Numbered from the stretch's first letter, positions 1 through 28,483 are shown. The stretch: DNA of 64,000 nt from Candidatus Zhuqueibacterota bacterium (GCA_049322915.1 JBMOPW010000003.1:21801-85800), one strand, 5' to 3'. Program-made: numbers and translations. The notes: a model not told the origin generated them from the letters alone.

Positions 1-2091
1 GGTGACGATTTTATACTCGCCGGGATTGATGGGATAGTCGGTCCCTGTCCCCGGAAATTGCCAGATTGAAGAAATTCCATCGATATCCGAAGTCAATCGG
101 CAGACAATTTTACCATCGAGGTATTCTGTGGTTGCGCCAGCATTGTACAACTCGATGTATTGGCATTCCAATTCGGTCATGGCGTAAGCGTTATAGAAAA
201 TTTCATTCATCTTCACCATGCTTGTCGTGACATAGGCGTCGTCCACATATTTCAGGATTCTCCCACCATAGGCCGCAGCCCAGAGAACATAATTGTTTTT
301 GGGAGCGATGCCTTTGATGAAATCACCGTACAAACCGACAGCCTGCAACGTCCAGTTCGTTCCACCGTCCGTCGTGGTGAGAATTGCGCCGTCATCGCCG
401 ACGATCCAGCCTTCCAATGGATTTTTGAAATAGACAGCTTCCAATTCTTCGGTTGTTGGAGAAGTTTGAAGCGTCCAGGTGGCGCCGCCATCGCCGGAGA
501 ATTGAATGACGCCATTTTCACCAACAGCCCAGCCATGAGTTGCGTCCAGGAAATATGCGCCATTGATGTCCCTCTCGCCACTCACTGTGAATGTGGATAA
601 ATTCCATGTTGCGCCGCCATTGGTGGTGTAATACAATGTATTGTCGGCGCCGCCGATGAAGCCGTTGTTTTCGTCCAGCATGAAAATTGTGTACAGCGTC
701 TCATTGGGCAGGCCAGTCTGCGCAGTCCAGTTGAGACCGGCATCGGTGGTTTTAAAAACTATCCCTTTTGCTGCTATGATCCAGCCAGTGGTATCATTGA
801 CAAAATCCACTTTGCGCAACCATTCGCCGGTCAGACCCTTACCCTGCAAATGCCAGGTAGCGCCGGCATCCTCAGTCCTGGCAATGAACCCGCCGGTTCC
901 GACAGTCCAGCCTGTGTCAGAGTTCACGAAATCCATACCCCACAATTGCGTGGCAATGGTGTTGTCCGCGACGAGGTATCGCGATTTCCAGGTGTATCCG
1001 CCGTCTGTGGTTTCCATCAGCGAGCTGTTATAACCCATGGCAATGGTGTGGCCTTCGTCGATGGTATAAATATAATACAGATTATGACCAAAAATATCGA
1101 CCAGTAATTCCCAGGTTTGGCCCAGGTTGTTGCTGTAGGCAATCGTCTCGTACTCGGCGACCCATGCTTGTTGGCCCACCAGAGCGACGCAGTTGGGACC
1201 GATGCCCAAGGCTACAGGTTGTTGAATCCAGGTACTGCCATCGGTCGTGGAAAACACTGTCCCATCATCGCCAACAGCGATGCCCGTGGTGTCATTAGAA
1301 AAGTCGATATCCCACATATTTTCATAGGTCTCTTCGGTTGGCGTGTACAGTGTCCAGGTATCGCCGCCGTTTTCAGTCCAGGCGAAGACGCTTTTCAGGA
1401 GGGATGTGGGGAAACCATCGCCGACCAACCAGGCTTTCGTGGCAGAGACCATTTTTACCGCATTATAATCTTTTGCCTGAATCTCGGCCACGGTCGTTGC
1501 CGGGGTCCAGGTAGTTCCCCAGTCGGAACTGTGGATAATGGTTTGCGCCTTTCCAACGGCAATGACTTTATCCATGCCAAAGTTGGAAGCGCCGTACAGG
1601 TCGTTGGCAGTGCCGCTTGTCTGCGTCACCCAGGTCTGGCCGTCGGTGGTTGCGCCAATTTTGCCGCCGTCAGCGACAGCGATGGCATGCATTTCATCGG
1701 CGACCACGATGTCGTTCATATCGGCTGTGGCGTCAAACGGCGTTTGGGTGACCCATGTTTCGCCGCCATCCGTGGATTTCAAAATCGTTCCATTTTCTCC
1801 AACGATCCATCCGGTCGTCTCATTAATGAAAACAACTTTGTTCAGGGTTTGGGATGTTCCGGACAGTCCCAATTCCCGCGTGATACCGCCATCCAGTGTT
1901 TTGAGGACCATACCATTCAGTCCTACAAACCAGCCGGTTTTTCCATCGGGCAGGAAAAATACATCGGTCACGGTACTGGGGACATCCGTCCGCGTCTCGA
2001 TTGTCCATGTCCCACCGGCAAAAGAAATTTCCGCGGAAATCAATAATGCTAAACAACTCAAGAGAACAAAAAACGTTAGCCCTCTCTTCAT
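1..2091 (-). CDS. Secreted BNR/Asp-box (Ycf48-like) beta-propeller repeat protein with C-terminal lamin-tail-like segment; partial, 3' end beyond window
   Basis: Manual minus-strand translation from ATG at 2091-2089: MKRGLTFFVLLSCLALLISAEISFAGG (signal peptide), then repeated xxDGGxTW units (KSTDGGETW, TTDGQTW, SSDWGTTW, TENGGDTW, STTDGSTW). Frame stays open to position 1; last codons read ECQYIELYNAGATTEYLDGKIVCRLTSD. Absent from ORF track because there is no stop codon in the window. Confidence 0.7.
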   Translation of the reverse strand, partial: MKRGLTFFVLLSCLALLISAEISFAGGTWTIETRTDVPSTVTDVFFLPDGKTGWFVGLNGMVLKTLDGGITRELGLSGTSQTLNKVVFINETTGWIVGENGTILKSTDGGETWVTQTPFDATADMNDIVVADEMHAIAVADGGKIGATTDGQTWVTQTSGTANDLYGASNFGMDKVIAVGKAQTIIHSSDWGTTWTPATTVAEIQAKDYNAVKMVSATKAWLVGDGFPTSLLKSVFAWTENGGDTWTLYTPTEETYENMWDIDFSNDTTGIAVGDDGTVFSTTDGSTWIQQPVALGIGPNCVALVGQQAWVAEYETIAYSNNLGQTWELLVDIFGHNLYYIYTIDEGHTIAMGYNSSLMETTDGGYTWKSRYLVADNTIATQLWGMDFVNSDTGWTVGTGGFIARTEDAGATWHLQGKGLTGEWLRKVDFVNDTTGWIIAAKGIVFKTTDAGLNWTAQTGLPNETLYTIFMLDENNGFIGGADNTLYYTTNGGATWNLSTFTVSGERDINGAYFLDATHGWAVGENGVIQFSGDGGATWTLQTSPTTEELEAVYFKNPLEGWIVGDDGAILTTTDGGTNWTLQAVGLYGDFIKGIAPKNNYVLWAAAYGGRILKYVDDAYVTTSMVKMNEIFYNAYAMTELECQYIELYNAGATTEYLDGKIVCRLTSDIDGISSIWQFPGTGTDYPINPGEYKIVT

Positions 2092-2129
2092 AAAAACCTC
2101 CGTTTGTATTGAGTTAAACATAAAAAAAA

Positions 2130-2159
2130 TGAATATATGAGAGTCGCTTCATATATTCA
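2130..2159. promoter_or_regulatory. Perfect 11-bp inverted repeat (tgaatatatga-N8-tcatatattca) about 40 bp upstream of the BNR gene start; candidate operator or 5' stem-loop
   Basis: Arms are exact reverse complements, read directly from sequence. Confidence 0.3.
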
Positions 2160-2652
2160 GGTCAAAGTTTAGCTACATAATTAGACAGATAAATGATTTT
2201 TGATAACCGTGATTCACGTTTTGATTTGTCTGAGAGTGGAAGTCATTAAATTTATGTTGAAAAGGAAGCATTAATAATATAAAAATATTATTCATTATGT
2301 CAAGAAGTATTTTTAATCAGGAACAGGCTTACACCAAAAGTGGACGCTCATACGTCGGATAAAATAGGCAATTTGAGCATGAAAGGGAAGCTCTGCCCCG
2401 GTGTGCATCAATGTCGGCGATAGATTGTATCAGAATTCGATGCGTGATCCGATCTCCTTTTGTCCGTCCGCCGATGTCATTAAGTGCAGCTGTACCAGCG
2501 ACGTTTTCGAGCGCCAGCCTCAGATCAATGCGCGTACCGGTTGTGGGCTCGATTTGTGCGAACACGTGATTGCGCCTGGTGTTGAGTTTAGCATTTAGCC
2601 TGAATTTCTAAGATGAAATGTCAAATGAGCGTACAGCATATTATTTTAGTAT

Positions 2653-2681
2653 GGAGTGAATTGACACAATCAATTCACTCC
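2653..2681. other. 12-bp perfect palindrome (ggagtgaattga-N5-tcaattcactcc) followed by a T-rich run; terminator-like hairpin of unknown role
   Basis: Read directly from sequence. Confidence 0.3.
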
Positions 2682-2997
2682 ATATATTTTTAGAAATTAA
2701 ATAGAGTCTGTCCGAAAACTGCTATTATTGACCTCACCCGAACCCTCTCCGAAAAGGCTTACCCTTACCCATATCTTTTCTAACGCAGAGACCGCAGAGG
2801 TACGCAAAGTTTTGGTATTGAAAAAAAGCTGTTTGCAAATTTATGAAACCATGTATTTTCCTGGTTATTCTGGTCTTCTGTGACTATGGGTGAACATGAT
2901 TTTCAATGTTTGATTGAAAATTTTAAAATCACTCTGGCCAATTCAACGCGGATCTTTTCTCTGCGCCCTTCGCGACCTCTGCGTTTCATTTGATGTG

Positions 2998-3105
2998 TTA
3001 ACCCTACTACGTCACATAGATTTTTTATCGTTGTATATTGTATTTTTGATAGATGAAAAACTCAACATAGTGTGATAAATTTACTAAATGACGTTGTAGG
3101 GTTAA
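2998..3105 (+). mobile_element. MITE family B copy 1 (108 bp, 17-bp terminal inverted repeats ttaaccctac[t/a]acgtca)
   Basis: 107/108 identical to the reverse complement of 40419-40526; ends are mutual reverse complements; no ORF. Confidence 0.7.
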
Positions 3106-3248
3106 TATCCCCCAACTTATGGGCAAGGGTAAGCCCAAAAGGCGAGGGAGAACAGATGGTCCCCTTCTTGCCCGCAGGGTAAGAAGGGGTTTTGGGGATG
3201 AGCTCTGACGTAGTGAAGTTTGAAAATATCACCCCCATAGCTAATTCA

Positions 3249-3410
3249 GCCTGCATTATTCATAGTATTTTTAGAGGAGGCTGGCTAACCTGAATGGTGC
3301 TCTTTTTAGAATAAACGTATAAAAACTGAGTTTCAAAATAGCTTAGCCTTTAGCTAATTGAAAATCTCAATGTTGACTCAAATTCTGAGCAAGTTCATGA
3401 ATAATTCAGG
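3249..3410 (-). mobile_element. MITE family A copy 1 (about 160 bp, terminal inverted repeat gcctg[a/c]attattcat), inverted relative to the other two copies
   Basis: Near-full-length reverse-complement match to 53139-53298 with a few mismatches; TIRs present. Confidence 0.7.
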
Positions 3411-3494
3411 TTAGGTGTTTTCGGACAGACTCTATTGAGCTAAACTTGATTATAAAAATCCATTTTAAAAATTTAGGTTTAGTAAAAAATAAAC

Positions 3495-4880
3495 TTATCT
3501 TCGTGCCGAATTGGCTACAGCGGCGAACATCTCTTTTGTGAACGCCACTTCTTTTTTGTGGTCAACAAGGCATGCCGGGTAGTCGGACAGCCCTTTCCCC
3601 GACTCCAGGCCGTGAATGGTCGCCGGGGTAAAATCTGACAATTCAGAGACCCATTTTCGAATGTAGCGGCATTCCCCGTCAAATTTTTTTTGCTGATTCC
3701 AGGGATTGAAAATGCGGAAATAGGGCTGAGCGTCGCAGCCAATGGATGCTGCCCATTGCCAGTTTCCGTTGTTGACGCAAGGATCATAATCCAGCAGGTG
3801 ACGCGCAAAATAGGCCTCGCCCCAGCGCCAGTCAATGCGCAAATCCTTCACCAGAAAGGACGCGACAATCATGCGCAGGCGATTGTGCATGAATCCGGTT
3901 TCATTCAACTCGCGCATGCCGGCATCCACAATGGGATAGCCGGTTTGCCCCTGACACCACGCCTGGAATTTATCAGCGTTGTTTTCCCAGACCAGCCCGT
4001 CGTATTTTCGTTTGAACGCATGCCCGAAGACATGGGGGAAGAAGTACCCGATCAGCGTGAAAAAATCCCGCCAGTAAAATTGCCTGATGAGCGGATGGTG
4101 TTCGCCCAACTGCTGAAAGACGCTGTAGTAGGCTTCCCGGATGGAACAGGCGCCAAATTTGAAATGCACTGAAAGTCGTGTGGTGGCGTCCAGTTCAGGC
4201 ACATCGCGCTCTGTCTCATACTGCCGGAACCGCTCAAGGCCGGATAGAATTTCCATTGCGCGGGATCGCCCTGCCGGAACCGAAGCAAGCTCGCTGTCCG
4301 GGGGTAAAACTTTCCCGAATATTTCGTCGTGAGACTGTCCCGGGCGCTTTGCTGATAAATTGGTAGGCACAGAAGAATTGGGCAACGGCACGGCCAGTTT
4401 CGAGGCATGATTGAAAAATGGCGTGAAGACTGTGTACGGGAAACCATCTTTTTTTAACGCAGCGCCGGGATCTGTCAGCAACGCATCGTGCAAGCCGATG
4501 AAAGGGGTATTTAACTTTTCACAGGCGGCGTTCAACTGCGCGTCGCGCTGCCGGCTGAATGGGGTGTAATCGTGATTGAAAAACACGGCATCGATGGCAT
4601 GCCCGGCCAGAATCTGCTCCAGCACACGGGCCGGGTCGCCGAAGAACAGAGATAAGCCACTGTCCATGTGAGTCAATTGAACATGAAGGTCTTGCAGCGC
4701 TTTCACCATGAAAAGCAGGCCCGGTCTGCTCCGATAGGGATGCGGTTCAACCTGTCGCGGATCAAAAATAAAACAGGGAATCACTTCCCGCGATCGCAGG
4801 AGCGCCTCGCGCAACCCGGAATTGTCTTCGAGCCGGAGGTCGCGTCGGAAAATAAACAGGGAGGTGTTGAATTTTTTCAT
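3495..4880 (-). CDS. phr: Deoxyribodipyrimidine photolyase / cryptochrome family protein
   Basis: 461-aa ORF; N-terminus FIFRRDLRLEDNSGL and C-terminal FAD-binding region (WRWGEAYFARHLLDYDPCVNNGNWQWAAS) typical of the photolyase family; ATG with GGAG upstream. Confidence 0.9.
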   Translation of the reverse strand: MKKFNTSLFIFRRDLRLEDNSGLREALLRSREVIPCFIFDPRQVEPHPYRSRPGLLFMVKALQDLHVQLTHMDSGLSLFFGDPARVLEQILAGHAIDAVFFNHDYTPFSRQRDAQLNAACEKLNTPFIGLHDALLTDPGAALKKDGFPYTVFTPFFNHASKLAVPLPNSSVPTNLSAKRPGQSHDEIFGKVLPPDSELASVPAGRSRAMEILSGLERFRQYETERDVPELDATTRLSVHFKFGACSIREAYYSVFQQLGEHHPLIRQFYWRDFFTLIGYFFPHVFGHAFKRKYDGLVWENNADKFQAWCQGQTGYPIVDAGMRELNETGFMHNRLRMIVASFLVKDLRIDWRWGEAYFARHLLDYDPCVNNGNWQWAASIGCDAQPYFRIFNPWNQQKKFDGECRYIRKWVSELSDFTPATIHGLESGKGLSDYPACLVDHKKEVAFTKEMFAAVANSARR

Positions 4881-17629: not shown

Positions 17630-18166
17630 CCTTCTCTCCTCAAAAAATGAAAATCAAAGCGATTCTTATAACAGGTATTGGGCCATGCGCGTTGCAAAGA
17701 AAGTAGTGAATGAATTATATGTAAATCGAGTTGGTTCACACTCAAAATACAAGTCAATCATCGTATGCGTTTTCAATGATGATGCCAAAATGTATGGCTG
17801 GGTAAAACAAAAAAATATCCAGGGGAAGAAGTCGCTTCGCTAACCGGGAGCTATTAGCGACAACCTGAATCCCATCTCATCCGGATAGTCGAGGTCGAAT
17901 AGTCCAGGTCGGAAATTGGCTGCCTGTATTTAAAATCCAAAGAGCATCATTTCATTCAAAAACGATTCGTATCATTCAAAGGAACGAAAATTTTCAGGTT
18001 TCCCCGGTAAAATAATATTGAAGTGAAAAGTTACCTGGTTGTTGAGATTTTATGCAGGCATTATCAAAAAAAAATAATGCTAAACAAATTGAAATATAAG
18101 CCGATTAATTAATAGTAATACTATATACTTAAATTGGCCCACGATGCGTGCGAAGAAAGGTATTGT

Positions 18167-19042
18167 CTATCTAAAGTAATCGGTGTGCACATCGAAATCA
18201 AAATTTGTCTTGATCCCTTCGAGTGAAGATAAGACTTCGAGAGAATGGGACCGATCTTTTAATCCAATCCCCGTTGCCAATGCGCACACAAATGTTAGAA
18301 TAGCGCTGGCAGTATTGATGAAGACAATATTTTCAGACGAAACTGGAAACACAACATCCGAGAATTCTGCGATGGGTGCGACCAATTTATCTGTAATCGA
18401 AATGACCCTAACGCCTTTTGAATGGGCCATTTCAGCAGCTTCGATCGTGGCTAACGTGTATGGCACCAGGCTGATAGCAATGATGGTATCTTCCTTTTTG
18501 ATGGCGAGAATTTGTTCATGAAAGCTGAATCCACAAGAAGTAAACGCTGCCGCTTTCAAGGTGATCCGATTCAGAAAATAAGCAGTCAGTTGTGATAGAT
18601 GCATGGAAATCCCGGCGCCTATAGTATAAATTTTGGAAGCGGAAACGCACAGATCAACTGCCTTATCAAAAGAGGCTCGGTCGAGTTTATCAAACGTAAG
18701 ACGTATATTTTCTATTTCATTGTTGGCAATGACGGACACAAAATCTGATTTAAGGGGTGCATTATCCAACACGTCCTTGAATTTTTTGGTTGCAGTAAGA
18801 TTATCGCGAAGCCTATCTGAAAGTTCTGCTTTTAATTCAAGGAATCCTTTGTAGCCTAATGCCTGTGCCAAACGAACAATTGTCGCTTTACCAACTTTCA
18901 ATTTATCGGCTATTGTATCGATCGATGAAAAGGCAATTTCTTCAGGATGGTCAATAAGGAACTGGGCGATTTTTTTTTGATTCTTTGTGAGTTGCGAAAT
19001 ATTATTTAGGATGAGTTGCTTATAGGCAGAAATTTCAGGCAT
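18167..19042 (-). CDS. RpiR/MurR-family transcriptional regulator (HTH_6 + SIS domain)
   Basis: 291-aa ORF; N-terminal HTH (IDTIADKLKVGKATIVRLAQALGYKGFLELK) and C-terminal SIS sugar-phosphate binding domain. Confidence 0.85.
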   Translation of the reverse strand: MPEISAYKQLILNNISQLTKNQKKIAQFLIDHPEEIAFSSIDTIADKLKVGKATIVRLAQALGYKGFLELKAELSDRLRDNLTATKKFKDVLDNAPLKSDFVSVIANNEIENIRLTFDKLDRASFDKAVDLCVSASKIYTIGAGISMHLSQLTAYFLNRITLKAAAFTSCGFSFHEQILAIKKEDTIIAISLVPYTLATIEAAEMAHSKGVRVISITDKLVAPIAEFSDVVFPVSSENIVFINTASAILTFVCALATGIGLKDRSHSLEVLSSLEGIKTNFDFDVHTDYFR

Positions 19043-19450
19043 TTAATTCTCTTGAGCTAAACAATTATTTCATTACAAAATTATAATGAAACTATTTTCT
19101 CAAAAATGTATTAAATATTTTTTAAAATGTCAAGGTATATTTTTATATTAACAAGAATTTGGCAGTTAACGATCTCGACATGATTGTGAAGTTGTATGAA
19201 TAGGCTTCGTTAGTCTCGTCAAGAATTAAAGAATGAAATAGTTTTAATTATAATTGGAGGAACGTAAGTATTTCAGAAGTGACTATCTGTATTAGATTGC
19301 AAAAAAGTAATCTAAGATTTTGCCATTGAATAAAATTAAGATAATTAAAATTAATTTTTTAGATAATAAACCACCAATGTATTTCAATGAAAAAATGAAT
19401 TCAAAATTCAATATGAGTCTCGGAGGTGAAATAGCCAGCAGACATTTCTC

Positions 19451-19479
19451 TTGACATAGACAAAAAAAATATTTATATT
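19451..19479 (+). promoter_or_regulatory. Consensus sigma70-type promoter (TTGACA-N17-TATATT), distal copy upstream of the M23 peptidase gene
   Basis: Exact -35 at 19451-19456, 17-nt spacer, -10 at 19474-19479. Confidence 0.5.
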
Positions 19480-19579
19480 TATCCTTCATCAAATCAGCTG
19501 AATGTGAATGTTTTTTTTAAAGTAAGCTGATAATGCAGGAAGAAATAGTGATGACTTTTACAAAAAATTAATTTTTCTC

Positions 19580-19608
19580 TTGACAAACGGTGATTTAGTT
19601 TGTATATT
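19580..19608 (+). promoter_or_regulatory. Consensus sigma70-type promoter (TTGACA-N17-TATATT), proximal copy about 110 nt upstream of the M23 peptidase ATG
   Basis: Exact -35 at 19580-19585, 17-nt spacer, -10 at 19603-19608; shares the preceding tctcttgaca context with the distal copy. Confidence 0.55.
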
Positions 19609-19725
19609 TCTCGTTGCCCAATTTTTAACTCACCAAAATAATTATGTTTCCCTGCCCGGTATGAGGTAATTTATGCTGCTCCCTTTGGTAAAGTCACCAC
19701 TATTAATCAAAACGAGGAGATTGAT

Positions 19726-20649
19726 ATGCGTGACAAGCGTGTAAAGCTGATCTATTTCTCTCTAAGGGGGTCAGAGGTTAAGGACATTGATCTTGGTTGG
19801 AAGAAAGTCTTTCTTTATTTTTCAATGTTATCGGCAATATTGATCATTCTTGTTGCCTTAGCGATTTCACTTTTCACAGATATTTATCATGATACTCGTT
19901 TATCTTCACTCAAAAAGACGAACGAAGTATTGAAATCGCAATTGGGAGAAATGCGTCAGTCGATCGACGTTATCGAAAATAAGGTAAAAAAATTAGAGGC
20001 GAATGCTGACGAAGAGAGAATGATTGCCGGTCTTGACCAAATCGATAAAGAGACGCGGAATTTAGGGGTTGGTGGTCCAAAGGCTGCAATTTTGGATTAC
20101 GAATCGGATGTCCTTCCGCGCGATTTAAGAAAGGATGTTTCTGAAACCCGATCCCTGATTGAGCAGATTGAGAGAAAAATTCAGCTAGTAGAAGAGAATA
20201 AAGAGGAAGTTGAGCATACGCTCGAAACGAAATCTGAAGGCGTCAAACGTCTTCCAACGATCAGACCTGTGCAGGGAGGGAGGATAACTGATCGGTTTGG
20301 AACTCGTATTGATCCTTTTACAGAAAAACCAAGACCCCATAGGGGAATTGATATCGCTGCAAAAATAGGTACTCCAGTTCTTGCAACAGCATATGGGGTT
20401 GTTACAAAAACAGTGCATAGCTATTTACCCAATAAGAATTTTGGGAAATATGTTGAAATTGATCACGGCAATGGTTATATAACGATGTACGCACACCTTG
20501 ACGAGATTTATGTCCGAGTGGGTCAGAAAGTAAAAAGGTGGGAAGAAATTGGAGCAGTCGGTAATACCGGTCGATCGACGGGGCCTCATTTGCATTATGA
20601 AGTAAGAATAAATGATGTTGCGGTTAATCCGTTGAATCACATTTATTAA
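19726..20649 (+). CDS. M23-family metallopeptidase with N-terminal membrane anchor and coiled-coil (EnvC/NlpD-like)
   Basis: 307-aa ORF; LytM motifs HRGIDIAAKIGTPV, VEIDHGNGYITMYAHL, GNTGRSTGPHLHYEV; GAGGAG RBS. Confidence 0.9.
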   Translation: MRDKRVKLIYFSLRGSEVKDIDLGWKKVFLYFSMLSAILIILVALAISLFTDIYHDTRLSSLKKTNEVLKSQLGEMRQSIDVIENKVKKLEANADEERMIAGLDQIDKETRNLGVGGPKAAILDYESDVLPRDLRKDVSETRSLIEQIERKIQLVEENKEEVEHTLETKSEGVKRLPTIRPVQGGRITDRFGTRIDPFTEKPRPHRGIDIAAKIGTPVLATAYGVVTKTVHSYLPNKNFGKYVEIDHGNGYITMYAHLDEIYVRVGQKVKRWEEIGAVGNTGRSTGPHLHYEVRINDVAVNPLNHIY

Positions 20650-20723
20650 TTCATCATCAGATCAGGCTCTTGACCTTTTTCAACGCCTTTTACCTGGCAA
20701 AAAAAATTTTTGGTGATTCGAAA

Positions 20724-20751
20724 ACCCTCTGAATTTTCAGGGGGTTTTTCA
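20724..20751 (+). terminator. Rho-independent terminator after the M23 peptidase gene
   Basis: GC-rich stem ccctctg/caggggg with short loop, followed by ttttt. Confidence 0.6.
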
Positions 20752-20905
20752 TTGAATGTTATTAATAACAAGGCTAACTTGAGATTTGCGTTCCGGGTAG
20801 CGGTGCATTCCAGACAATAATCAATGACAGCCTTGCCGGACGATTCGCCAAAGAGAAATATCTGCTTCAATCACAAAAAAAACTATGTTATCCTGATTCG
20901 AGGAA

Positions 20906-23089
20906 ATGATGAAATTGTCAATCTATTCGATCTTTGTAACGTTGACAGTATTACTCGTATTACCAGATGCGAAGGGGAGTTCTATCGATAGTCATGTTAC
21001 AAGGCCTGTTGGCCCGGGGATCTTTTATCATGAAATCTATCAAAATGAAGGCCCATGGAGCATACGGGTTTTGGAGATTGATCTGACAAATCAATTCGTT
21101 TCTTTAGAGACAATTAAAGCGAATAGCATTGTGGCGGGTAGGGAGAAATTATCCCGAATGGCGAAGTCGGCCAGTTCGGATGGGCATTGGGTCGTCGGTG
21201 GTATAAACGCCGATTTTTTCTCGTCTTCAGGGATCCCACATGGCATCCAGGTCATTGACGGGAAACTACTTACCGATCCGTCAGGATGGTCGGTATTTGG
21301 ATTAACCAGGAATAGAAAACCATTCATCGATAAAATGTCATTACAAGCGAGCGTCGTTGCAGATGAAGGCGTATCCCATCCGATCCATCATATCAATAAA
21401 ACGGGTGCCATAAATGAAATGACGTTATTTTCGAGTCACGTGGGGCCGCATCGTGTAGCCGCTGAAAATTCCATCGAACTTATCCTGCGCTCCACCAATG
21501 GGCAGTTGCACTTGTGCAATACCCTTATTGTCGTGGTGGATAGTATCCTGTCCACGTCGAATGGCTTCGCAGTTCCCGAATCCGGATTTATCCTTGCTGC
21601 GGATGGCAGAGCTCAAAAATTTATTGAGAGCTATGCCGCAGTGGGTGACACCTGGAAAATCTTCATTGCCTTTCAGCCTTCGTACGACATCCTTGAAGCG
21701 ATCAGTGGAGGACCACGGATCATCCGGAACGGAGGCATTTCCGTGGAGAACGCGGATGAAGGGATTTCCGATGCGTTTGCAACTGCACGTCATCCTCGAA
21801 GCGCCATTGGTTTTAACAAGGAGGGCACGCATATCTATTTTATCGCAGTGGATGGCCGTCAGCCGGGATATAGCGTAGGAATGTCGCTGTATGAATTGTC
21901 GGATCTTATGATACAGTTTGGAATTACGGAAGCAGTGAATTTGGATGGTGGTGGTTCTACGACCCTGGTCGTGCGCGATTCTGTTGTCAATCGGCCTTCT
22001 GATGATTCAGGCGAAAGGACGGTTGCAAATGCAATACTCGCTGTGAGCACTGCTCCCCTGGGTCCGCTCAGCACGATTGAAATCGAACCGGAACGGGCTA
22101 AGATCGTTGCCAATTCAGAGTTCGATTTTCGCGTGCATGGTTACGATCAATATTTCAATCCAATCCCAGTCGATCAGAAATCAATTGTGTGGGAGGTCAA
22201 GCCTGGCTCATTTGAATCGAGTAAAAACGGGCTTATTTCTTTTAACTCCAATATTGGACCGCACATTATTATTGCCCATAATAATGACTTGGTTGATACA
22301 GCCTACGTCGACCTTGTGAATATCTCAGCGATTGAATTGCAACCGAACCCCATTGTTTTAGAATTGGGAGGGTGCCAGCAAATGCTGATAAACATTTATG
22401 ATAATGAAGGCTTTAAAATTAACCAGAAGTTAAGTTATAACGCGATCGTTTCAAATGCGATCGGGACGCTGGATTCAAATTTTGTTTTTCAGGCTCAGCG
22501 ACCCGGACGAGGCCAACTCAAAGTAACGAAGGGCGACGTGAGCGGCAGTGCGAGCATTATTGTCGGTGACAAATCCACAACTATCATCGAAGATTTTGAG
22601 GACATTTCGGACTGGACAGTGAGCACATTGCGGGCAACTCCAGAAGCCTGCCAGTTTGTTCTGTCAGACTCTTTCTTTTATATTGGAAGTCATTCGGGAG
22701 AGCTTCAATACCATCTGGAATCAGGAGGAACGAGCGCTGTTTATTGTCAAACGTCGATTCCCGTGTTTGGAGAGCCGTATGCAATAAGCCTCAGCGTTTT
22801 GGGTGATGCTAAAAGTCATTGGCTGCGCGGTGAATTTGAAGATAGAAACGGTCATTTGTTTATCATGGATTTTACTGAAAAAATTCATGGCATCCACTGG
22901 AAAAATGAATGGAAGCATCTTCAGGCAACATTATCTTCATCGCAACCAAGTTGGACGAATCCCTCCGCAACGATAAAATTTCCTATCACCTGGAAAAAAT
23001 TATATATCGCTGAAACAGATGAGAAAGCTAAAAATAGCGGTATTATTTATTTCGATAATCTGCAGGCGGAATATATCCAGACGCCATGA
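20906..23089 (+). CDS. Secreted phosphodiester glycosidase-family protein with bacterial Ig-like (Big_2-like) domains
   Basis: 727-aa ORF; signal peptide; segment AIGFNKEGTHIYFIAVDGRQPGYSVGMSLYEL...AVNLDGGGSTTLVV typical of the phosphodiester glycosidase (NAGPA-like) family; Ig-like repeats in the middle. Confidence 0.65.
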   Translation: MMKLSIYSIFVTLTVLLVLPDAKGSSIDSHVTRPVGPGIFYHEIYQNEGPWSIRVLEIDLTNQFVSLETIKANSIVAGREKLSRMAKSASSDGHWVVGGINADFFSSSGIPHGIQVIDGKLLTDPSGWSVFGLTRNRKPFIDKMSLQASVVADEGVSHPIHHINKTGAINEMTLFSSHVGPHRVAAENSIELILRSTNGQLHLCNTLIVVVDSILSTSNGFAVPESGFILAADGRAQKFIESYAAVGDTWKIFIAFQPSYDILEAISGGPRIIRNGGISVENADEGISDAFATARHPRSAIGFNKEGTHIYFIAVDGRQPGYSVGMSLYELSDLMIQFGITEAVNLDGGGSTTLVVRDSVVNRPSDDSGERTVANAILAVSTAPLGPLSTIEIEPERAKIVANSEFDFRVHGYDQYFNPIPVDQKSIVWEVKPGSFESSKNGLISFNSNIGPHIIIAHNNDLVDTAYVDLVNISAIELQPNPIVLELGGCQQMLINIYDNEGFKINQKLSYNAIVSNAIGTLDSNFVFQAQRPGRGQLKVTKGDVSGSASIIVGDKSTTIIEDFEDISDWTVSTLRATPEACQFVLSDSFFYIGSHSGELQYHLESGGTSAVYCQTSIPVFGEPYAISLSVLGDAKSHWLRGEFEDRNGHLFIMDFTEKIHGIHWKNEWKHLQATLSSSQPSWTNPSATIKFPITWKKLYIAETDEKAKNSGIIYFDNLQAEYIQTP

Positions 23090-27738: not shown

Positions 27739-27767
27739 TTGACACTTTCAGAATTCTTTGCTATATT
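27739..27767 (+). promoter_or_regulatory. Consensus sigma70-type promoter (TTGACA-N17-TATATT) for the ArsR-family operon
   Basis: -35 at 27739-27744, -10 at 27762-27767, about 40 nt upstream of ATG 27809. Confidence 0.55.
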
Positions 27768-27808: not shown

Positions 27809-28483
27809 ATGAACGTCGATGAGAGCATACAAATCATGAAAGCCCTGGCGGACAGTTCGCGATTGATGATTGTGAACTCTCTCATGGAGAAGGCGCAATG
27901 CGTTGAGGAGTTAGCCGAGCGATTCAATCTGGCAGCGTCCACTGTGTCGTTCCATCTCAAAAAGCTCGAGAATGCGCGCTTGCTCCACAAAGAGAAAAGG
28001 CAGTACTATGTTTTTTTCTCGCTCAATCCTGAAATTTTTACATCCACCCTGCAACAGCTCATTTCATTCGAGAACATCGGGAAGTACGTGCAAGAAGAAC
28101 GCATTCTAAAATATAAGGAGAAAGTGATTCATACGTTTTTTGAAAAAGGCAAACTGCGTCGATTGCCTTCTCAGCACAAGAAGCGCTGGATTGTACTGGA
28201 GCAGATCGCACAGAGATTCGAGACAGGAAAAGAATACAGTGAGGCCGACGTCAACGCGACGATTTCCACGGTGTTTGATGATTACTGCTCCATCCGCAGG
28301 GAACTGGTTGACGAAGGAATCATGGAGCGCGACGGGCAGCGCTACCGACTCTCCGAGCGAAAATTTGATGAATCGCCAAAACTTCGTCCCAATAGCCTGC
28401 AACATAGTTATCAGCAAAGTATAAGTCACCGTTCCCGACCGGGCAAAACGACGAAAGGAGTTGAGTCGAATGATAGATCGTAA
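27809..28483 (+). CDS. ArsR/SmtB-family HTH regulator fused to a DUF2087-type C-terminal domain
   Basis: N-terminal winged helix (ALADSSRLMIVNSLMEKAQCVEELAERFNLAASTVSFHLKKLENARLL); GGAG RBS; start taken at ATG 27809 rather than the track TTG. Confidence 0.8.
   Translation: MNVDESIQIMKALADSSRLMIVNSLMEKAQCVEELAERFNLAASTVSFHLKKLENARLLHKEKRQYYVFFSLNPEIFTSTLQQLISFENIGKYVQEERILKYKEKVIHTFFEKGKLRRLPSQHKKRWIVLEQIAQRFETGKEYSEADVNATISTVFDDYCSIRRELVDEGIMERDGQRYRLSERKFDESPKLRPNSLQHSYQQSISHRSRPGKTTKGVESNDRS

Follow-up and report, generated by a model that had tools for sequence, protein, structure and literature searches.

Why does the gene for a likely cell-wall hydrolase, in an uncultured bacterial lineage, stand behind two consecutive consensus promoters and a long leader? 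Peptidoglycan endopeptidases are a class of enzymes whose activity has to be kept within tight limits. To our knowledge, KSB1/Calditrichota has few or no cultured members, and almost nothing is known of its promoters and gene control. The window analysed here is a stretch of 64,000 nucleotides from Candidatus Zhuqueibacterota bacterium (GCA_049322915.1 JBMOPW010000003.1:21801-85800), and all coordinates are counted from its first letter. An earlier note on this DNA had pointed to two TTGACA-N17-TATATT sites in the intergenic region between an RpiR-family gene and a divergent M23 peptidase gene, and had suggested a duplicated promoter module with long leaders, and perhaps a small RNA or regulator sites for the RpiR-family gene. 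Here, we report that the locus as a whole is probably best explained by two sigma-70-type promoters in tandem, combined with control of the M23 gene through its leader.

Results

Tandem promoters upstream of the M23 gene

The genes and promoters of the region are the following.

18167-19042, minus strand: RpiR/MurR-type gene (Pfam)
19105-19133, minus strand: predicted divergent promoter for the RpiR-family gene (TTGACA 19133-19128, N17, TACATT 19110-19105)
19445-19479, plus strand: promoter P1 (T-tract and C 19445-19450, TTGACA 19451-19456, 17-nt spacer, TATATT 19474-19479)
19580-19608, plus strand: promoter P2 (-35 TTGACA 19580-19585, 17-nt spacer, -10 TATATT 19603-19608)
19726-20649, plus strand: M23 metallopeptidase gene, 307 aa (Pfam PF01551, E = 1.8e-34)

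The intergenic region (19043-19725) between the RpiR-type and M23 genes is long and AT-rich, as the earlier note had it, with 683 bp and 27% GC versus 50% for the window. In the M23 protein, an N-terminal membrane anchor is followed by a coiled-coil-like middle and, at the C terminus, a LytM domain; its nearest named families are the MepM/ShyA-type DD-endopeptidases, at scores below the curated cut-offs; an exact-protein look-up of the window's M23 returned no record. Since the catalytic HxxxD and HxH motifs are intact (HRGID and HLH, read from the translation) and the protein carries a membrane anchor, the product is likely an active endopeptidase that needs dose control. A tRNA/tmRNA scan of the window found neither, and the window holds no rRNA.

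Direct reading and a consensus scan both recover the two sites with their -35 hexamers 129 bp apart. Each matches the consensus at 11/12 positions, they are the top two sites of positions 18000-21000, and both have the features expected of sigma-70-type hexamers (A at -11, T at -7, spacing of 17 +/- 1 bp). The common preceding context that had been described is also real and amounts to the 12-nt TTTCTCTTGACA, present in P1 (19445-19456) and P2 (19574-19585; repeat family D6). The two spacers are unrelated (5/17 identical, by eye), and the similarity between P1 and P2 is thus limited to the promoter elements and a short T-tract. With transcription starting about 7 nt past each -10, the predicted starts are at ~19486 for P1 and ~19615-19616 for P2, in agreement with the leaders of about 240 and 110 nt proposed before.

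Sites of this quality are rare by chance. Among 20,000 first-order Markov sequences matched in length and composition to the intergenic region, 2.9% contain at least one site of 11/12 on one strand and 0.07% contain at least two. The 64-kb window has five sites of at least 11/12 and, because all five use TTGACA and TATATT, this combination looks like the preferred strong-promoter form of the lineage.

The layout is conserved in distant relatives

Close relatives of the M23 protein are found only in metagenomes and metagenome-assembled genomes (MAGs) labelled KSB1 or Calditrichaeota, plus one MAG labelled 'Cytophagia'. Our comparison set consists of the window and eleven orthologous loci, with M23 identities of 98% (L011), 82% (L001), 58% (L012), 55% (L014), 53% (L016), 52% (L018), 48% (L020 and L022) and ~50-56% (L025, L027 and L028). 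In L023, an orthologue further removed (44%), there is just one consensus promoter, 340 bp upstream, and the leader is different and GC-rich. Two scans of viral_contigs gave one unrelated chance match and nothing else.

P2 is present in 12/12 loci with a 17-bp spacer and a TATATT -10 (TATACT once), and the distance from its -35 to the ATG is 112-146 bp throughout. Of the 11 loci with enough upstream DNA, all but L025 have P1, and in nine of these ten it lies 129-135 bp upstream of P2; in L028 the distance is 152 bp, and a 24-bp tandem duplication lies between the promoters. Block conservation of P1 is 0.83-0.91 for the -35, 0.94-0.97 for the -10 and 0.66-0.70 for the spacer, and the corresponding values for P2 over the 12 loci are 1.00, 0.98-0.99 and 0.69-0.70, with unconstrained flanks at 0.44-0.60 against 0.83-1.00 for the hexamers. 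The 17-bp spacing is kept in every locus, and so is the T-tract-plus-C context in every lineage. We judge both promoters functional because hexamers and spacing are kept while spacers and flanks drift, and the persistence of the same layout in eleven distant relatives means that P1 and P2 are almost certainly genuine promoters of ancient origin, which supply a conserved long mRNA leader. That they are directed at the M23 gene is upheld as well, given that hexamers and spacing are retained down to 48% protein identity; the comparison supports genuine sigma-70-type promoters aimed at this gene, and it is from sequence and conservation that we infer their use in an uncultured lineage. The base 5' of CTTGACA varies by genome (T, A or G), and in 9/10 genomes P1 and P2 agree in it, which hints at concerted evolution or a common contact.

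The neighbourhood shows to which gene this arrangement belongs. An RpiR gene lies upstream only in the window, L011 and L001. In L012 the upstream gene is transglutaminase-like, L016 and L018 have a Na/Ala symporter there, L020 has an S8 peptidase, L022 and L028 share an inositol phosphatase, and L025 has a RACo-type gene. Because the upstream neighbour differs among loci, the module belongs to the M23 gene and not to RpiR, and the suggestion of regulator sites for the divergent RpiR gene does not hold: P1, P2 and the leader are equally conserved where RpiR is not adjacent. The RpiR gene's own predicted promoter, a context feature, lies outside the tandem pair; it is conserved in L001 and L011, and similar DNA occurs in L012, where RpiR is absent. 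A separate inverted repeat (19067-19091) adjoins the RpiR start.

The idea of a duplicated module, if a recent event is meant, has to be dropped, since the pair is ancient and clade-wide, the spacers are unrelated and the similarity is confined to promoter elements and T-tract. We also considered an invertible promoter (inverton), as inverted repeats flank P2; P2 points to the gene in 12/12 loci from different samples, and this candidate was rejected.

Upstream elements of the promoters

Four features had not been part of the earlier note: an UP-like tract, a far-upstream element, the conservation of the leader, with a possible upstream open reading frame and a hairpin over the start codon, and a 15-nt long-range complementarity. 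The first two are as follows.

19559-19579, plus strand: UP-element-like A/T tract of P2, with the palindrome AAAAAATTAATTTTT at 19562-19576, about -54 to -39
19296-19312, plus strand: element (a), 17-nt core ATTGCAAAAAAGTAATC in the window and ATTTCAAAWNGGTAATC in relatives

The UP-like tract has the form A6-TTAA-T5/6 and abuts the P2 -35. It is nearly invariant in 12/12 loci (0.91-0.92 over 21 nt), which makes it the most conserved non-coding block after the P2 hexamers; P1 has a short T-tract and no conserved UP tract. Position and composition of the tract fit an UP element, and binding of the RNA polymerase alpha subunit is predicted. The tract matches the A-tract/T-tract consensus of UP elements (about -60 to -38), and it resembles the rrnB P1 UP sequence, AGAAAATTATTTTAAATTTCCT. 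The A/T palindrome occurs again at 19346-19360, and this further copy shows no conservation among relatives.

Element (a) occurs in 8 lineages, 152-155 bp upstream of the P1 -35 (140 bp in L020), and is conserved at 0.73-0.79 versus 0.47-0.51 for the unalignable stretch that separates it from P1. The 64-kb window contains a single copy, which resembles the UP-like block of P2 (repeat family D5). Readings of element (a) as a sigma-54, a Bacteroidetes-type or an alternative -35/-10 promoter gave no consistent match by eye. From element (a) to P2 there is no clear helical periodicity (10-11 bp) of AA dinucleotides, and no further occurrences of the conserved motifs in the 64-kb window point to a regulon. 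Judged by its conservation, the whole is an ancient module of ~430 bp: element (a), ~155 bp, P1, ~130 bp, P2, ~140 bp, ATG.

A conserved leader with a candidate upstream open reading frame

The P2 leader (~110 nt) alternates between invariant and free segments, of which the following stand out.

19629-19634, plus strand: leader block CTCACC (CTTACC in distant relatives), conserved at 0.92 with flanks at 0.44-0.60
19651-19666, plus strand: CCTGCC (19651-19656) and GAGG (19663-19666), a candidate anti-Shine-Dalgarno (anti-SD)/SD hairpin, paired by eye
19673-19682, plus strand: conserved leader block ATGCTGCTCC
19673-19744, plus strand: candidate upstream open reading frame (uORF) of 23 codons, MLLPLVKSPLLIKTRRLICVTSV and a stop, with GAGG 6 nt before its ATG

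CTCACC is often in or near the loop of a small hairpin whose register is not conserved, and CCTRCC is conserved at 0.79. Positions 19690-19740 are almost invariant, with the DNA more conserved there than the protein. Two further structures examined by eye, a helix that would close the leader (ACCAAA/TTTGGT and variants) and a hairpin with CTCACC as part of the loop, were rejected, as their register differs among lineages.

The candidate uORF runs 19 nt into the M23 gene in a different frame. An SD-preceded uORF starting at -52 to -57, with GAGG followed by ATG or GTG after 4-7 nt, is found in 8/12 loci, and L027 has a 4-codon uORF; L020, L022 and L028 have none. Its length is 23 codons in the window group, 10 codons in L012, L014, L016 and L018, with the peptide M(L/Q)L(P/Q)xKxHHY and a stop, and 13 codons, in another frame, in L025. 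The chance of such a uORF is 2.5-11% per sequence. There is no coding signature in the form of a third-codon-position pattern, and the lineages use three frames with no conserved peptide, so that translation of the uORF is weakly supported; if it is used, the relevant part would be the act of translation and not the peptide, because neither peptide nor third positions show conservation. The unpaired probability of the upstream SD is 0.00-0.32 in all 9 sequences that have one, with leader means of 0.40-0.54, and in these models it is plausibly paired most of the time, with CCTRCC as partner. A mini-ORF over the P1-specific segment described below (GTG ATG ACT TTT ACA AAA AAT TAA) was discarded, given that it varies at first and second codon positions and lacks its start in some loci.

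Predicted structures around the M23 start codon

Two predicted pairings converge on the M23 translation start.

19693-19734, plus strand: 15-bp hairpin in which GTCACCACTATTAATC (19693-19708) pairs with GATTGATATGCGTGAC (19719-19734)
19544-19558, plus strand: 5' arm AATAGTGATGACTTT, transcribed only from P1 and complementary to 19690-19704
19690-19704, plus strand: 3' arm AAAGTCACCACTATT, overlapping the start-codon hairpin

The M23 ATG (19726-19728) sits in the predicted stem of the hairpin, and the main SD, GAGGAG (19714-19719), lies mostly in its loop, with the last G opening the 3' arm. The hairpin is part of the minimum-free-energy fold in 7 lineages and has -11.9 kcal/mol on its own. Where present its sequence is invariant, with 0 compensatory pairs, and covariation therefore speaks neither for nor against it. 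The five distant loci have other pairings in its place, which cover the SD, and in 10/12 leaders the main SD or main AUG has an unpaired probability of at most 0.26.

An inverted-repeat scan pairs the two arms at 18/21 positions (I2). The long-range pairing is found at 13-14/15 positions in 7 lineages, the same that have the start-codon hairpin, with z-scores of -1.6 to -3.5, and in none of the 5 more distant ones; it is absent from L020, L022 and L028 although P1 is retained there. Substitutions in the arms are mostly A-to-G (three or four) and lead to G:U wobbles. The covariation score of 0.230 exceeds both shuffles (0.145) and slid controls (0.085-0.126), an excess that related sequences alone can give. 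Because the long-range helix and the start-codon hairpin both use GTCACCACTATT, they are mutually exclusive. The two competing folds are within 2-6 kcal/mol of each other; for the P1 transcript of the window the free fold has -51.4 kcal/mol versus -49.5 kcal/mol with the long helix forced, and the long helix is not in the minimum-free-energy fold of that transcript. In single-sequence folds the leader folds no better than shuffles (z = -0.5 and -0.2), and RNAalifold on the 12 leaders gives no consensus structure except a weak hairpin within the coding start. Post-transcriptional control by the leader is thus a model-based inference.

These pairings can be arranged into one mechanism. P2, with its UP-like tract, would be the core or main promoter and give an mRNA with a ~110-nt leader, and P1 would be an accessory upstream promoter whose ~240-nt leader reads through P2. 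The uORF (start 19673) would have its own SD, masked by the CCTRCC anti-SD, and would be translated through the 5' half of the hairpin at 19693-19734 that buries the M23 start codon; M23 translation from P2 transcripts would, as a consequence of this path, be coupled to uORF translation. In P1 transcripts the 15-nt segment 19544-19558 would pair with the same 5' half and open the start codon without the uORF, and uORF translation could relieve the hairpin in both P2 and P1 transcripts. Promoter choice would then set the amount of mRNA as well as the ease of its translation. In its complete form, as a two-promoter translational switch in which P2 mRNA hides the start codon and needs a gated uORF, the anti-sequestering segment of P1 mRNA frees the start and element (a) controls P1, we regard this mechanism as a long shot.

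Alternative explanations

The same arms could act as DNA. They, and perhaps the A/T palindrome and element (a), might be operators at which a protein, bound on both sides of P2 and ~140 bp apart, loops out P2 and roadblocks P1 in the manner of GalR or DeoR; the promoters would still be real and the control transcriptional. In favour of this, P2 has an arm on either side, at about -70 and +80, each arm contains an internal AGT-N4-ACT symmetry, their sequences are invariant rather than covarying, and the leader shows no thermodynamic or RNAalifold signal. The fixed spacings of element (a), P1 and P2 across unconserved DNA suggest a protein-DNA architecture too, and element (a) resembles the UP-like block. 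Against operators, no candidate regulator travels with the module, the neighbours differing by lineage; the A-to-G changes of the arms, read on the plus strand, keep RNA G:U pairs and would break DNA symmetry; the 64-kb window has no other occurrence of the arm motif; and the A-tracts show no clear helical periodicity. We consider this explanation unlikely, if worth keeping in mind.

A separate small RNA of ~60-130 nt, driven by P1, ending before or within the P2 region and not serving M23, is a much poorer fit. In its favour, P1 has a full consensus and the nearest start codon is 240 nt away; downstream of P1 there are a 7-bp hairpin ATCAGCT/AGCTGAT (19493-19532) and a T8 run (19513-19520). 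However, the stretch from P1 to the ATG is free of terminator-like sites in the window and in L012, L018 and L020. The Rfam scan that the earlier note had called for finds no family that reaches its gathering threshold, either on the window or on 12 other loci (the 11 relatives and L023), and Rfam 15 taken up to E = 10 on 18900-19900 yields only chance eukaryotic snoRNA and miRNA matches (E = 0.4-7). The segment from P1 to P2 is the least conserved transcribed part (0.55-0.60), save for the last 15-35 nt of the P1-specific transcript, and what is kept is its length, not its sequence or structure. The sole conserved P1-specific piece complements the M23 translation-start region, which argues for a role in cis. 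The small RNA proposed earlier thereby loses its footing and we find it very improbable; given the missing terminator, the missing Rfam match and the poor conservation of the segment, P1 transcripts most likely continue past P2 and into the gene.

Chance matches in AT-rich DNA or a recent local duplication, with one or neither site used, would agree with the unremarkable number of weaker sites (12 of at least 9/12 in 3 kb versus 10.7 expected) and with the 12-nt common context, which could suggest copying, but this explanation is close to refuted by conservation and hardly credible, as matched random sequences so rarely hold two 11/12 sites, both sites and their exact spacing are kept at 48-58% M23 identity, the spacers are unrelated and the T-tract-plus-C context extends to every lineage.

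Discussion

The closest analogue of the M23 tandem promoters is the rrn P1/P2 pair, whose promoters in E. coli are ~120 bp apart (PMC4696680). Both systems have two strong sigma-70-type promoters on the same strand (129-135 bp apart here), one promoter with an A/T-rich UP element, or at this locus its look-alike, directly upstream of the -35, and further conserved DNA elements far upstream. In contrast to rrn, the M23 pair drives a protein-coding gene for a probable cell-wall hydrolase and not rRNA, the UP-like tract accompanies the downstream P2 instead of P1, the P2 discriminators are A/T-rich and variable where those of rrn are GC-rich, Fis-type sites are not recognisable, and the host belongs to an uncultured phylum of the FCB group. 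The P2 tract also differs from an ordinary UP element: a degenerate UP element would require far less conservation than the 0.91 over 21 nt seen across 12 lineages, and the tract is a perfect palindrome. Because of this strict conservation and symmetry, a dimeric protein could bind there as well.

The proposed leader control resembles ermC/cat attenuation, secM-secA and termination-reinitiation in that a short SD-bearing uORF runs into an arm of a hairpin that hides a start codon, and it shares with them alternative pairings that exclude each other, which at this locus are predicted. Unlike in those systems, the leader peptide is not conserved and has no evident stalling motif, the uORF is missing in 3/12 lineages, and the promoter-specific anti-sequestering segment has no counterpart. 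A candidate cis-regulatory RNA, the M23 RNA motif, has been described in 5' UTRs of M23 peptidase genes (Weinberg et al. 2017, PMC5737381); the present leader has no Rfam match and is not a detectable member. Tandem sigma-70 promoters with an UP element are a known kind of arrangement, and the leader is a candidate for a new cis-regulatory leader.

For KSB1/Calditrichota, the locus provides a footprinted example of a strong promoter, consisting of a T-tract, CTTGACA, N17, TATATT and an UP-like tract, a form that is useful for annotation, start-site prediction and expression tools. It also delimits a candidate cis-regulatory region of a peptidoglycan endopeptidase. If the promoter part alone is true, this is an ordinary but well-supported tandem promoter. 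If the leader model is true, it would be a compact case of promoter choice dictating translatability, and with the full switch the output of a potentially lethal cell-wall hydrolase would be set by the mRNA isoform and not by transcription rate alone.

Surroundings of the tandem promoters

Upstream of the tandem plus-strand promoters of the M23 peptidase gene (P1, 19451-19479; P2, 19580-19608), the window holds two further features.

19296-19312: conserved 17-nt element, ATTTCAAAWNGGTAATC, in a hairpin-like context (19293-19316)
19346-19360: the P2 A/T palindrome in a second, near-perfect copy, TAAAATTAATTTTTT, approximately 100 bp upstream of P1

The distance from the conserved element down to the P1 -35 hexamer is 152-155 bp in seven of eight lineages and 140 bp in the remaining one (L020), and the stretch separating it from P1 cannot be aligned among lineages. 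It is similar to the UP-like block of P2 (TTNCAAAA..TAAT). The palindrome copy shows no conservation in relatives, and in this AT-rich DNA the match is probably due to chance.

The base directly 5' of CTTGACA (19449 and 19578 in the window) is T, A or G depending on the genome among the orthologous loci L001-L028, and in 9 of 10 genomes P1 and P2 share it. The agreement suggests either short-tract gene conversion between both promoters or a common protein contact.

On the side of the divergent RpiR/MurR-type gene, the minus-strand promoter (19133 to 19105) and the start codon of that gene have one repeat between them.

19067-19091: perfect 8-bp inverted repeat, TTTCATTA-N9-TAATGAAA

This repeat may serve as an autoregulatory operator. 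In the relative L012, whose locus lacks the RpiR gene, there is similar DNA, and the same promoter region faces a transglutaminase-like gene instead.

Consensus promoters elsewhere in the window

Consensus promoters also occur at a distance from the M23 gene, two of them, together with inverted repeats, in a 1.4-kb stretch (2050-3495) that has no ORF of at least 90 aa.

27739-27767: fourth TTGACA-N17-TATATT promoter, with an ArsR/SmtB-like ORF (ATG at 27810) starting approximately 40 nt downstream
2303, minus strand: consensus promoter
2661, plus strand: consensus promoter
2650-2664/2670-2684: perfect 15-nt inverted repeat overlying the 2661 promoter
2700-2724/3412-3436: long inverted repeat (25 nt, 92%), nested set
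2743-2773/3118-3148: long inverted repeat, nested set
2998-3050/3053-3105: long inverted repeat, nested set

The promoter at 27739-27767 supports TATATT as the usual -10 of the lineage. The 1.4-kb stretch gave no match in an Rfam search; possible readings are a foldback or MITE-like element and a large structured RNA.

Promoters and leaders in relatives

In the orthologous locus L028, P1 and P2 are 152 bp apart because a perfect 24-bp tandem duplication between them (2385-2432, AAAAGTTAAGCGTATTAATTTTAT twice) lengthens the spacing; the deposited gene call of its M23 orthologue (P0020, 342 aa) begins 105 nt too early, within the promoter region. A more distant orthologue with 44% identity (L023, 2110-2500) carries only one TTGACA-N17-TATATT promoter, located 340 bp upstream, followed by a long, GC-rich leader that is unrelated to that of the window and gave no match in an Rfam search. 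Having a long leader therefore appears typical of this M23 gene family as a whole.
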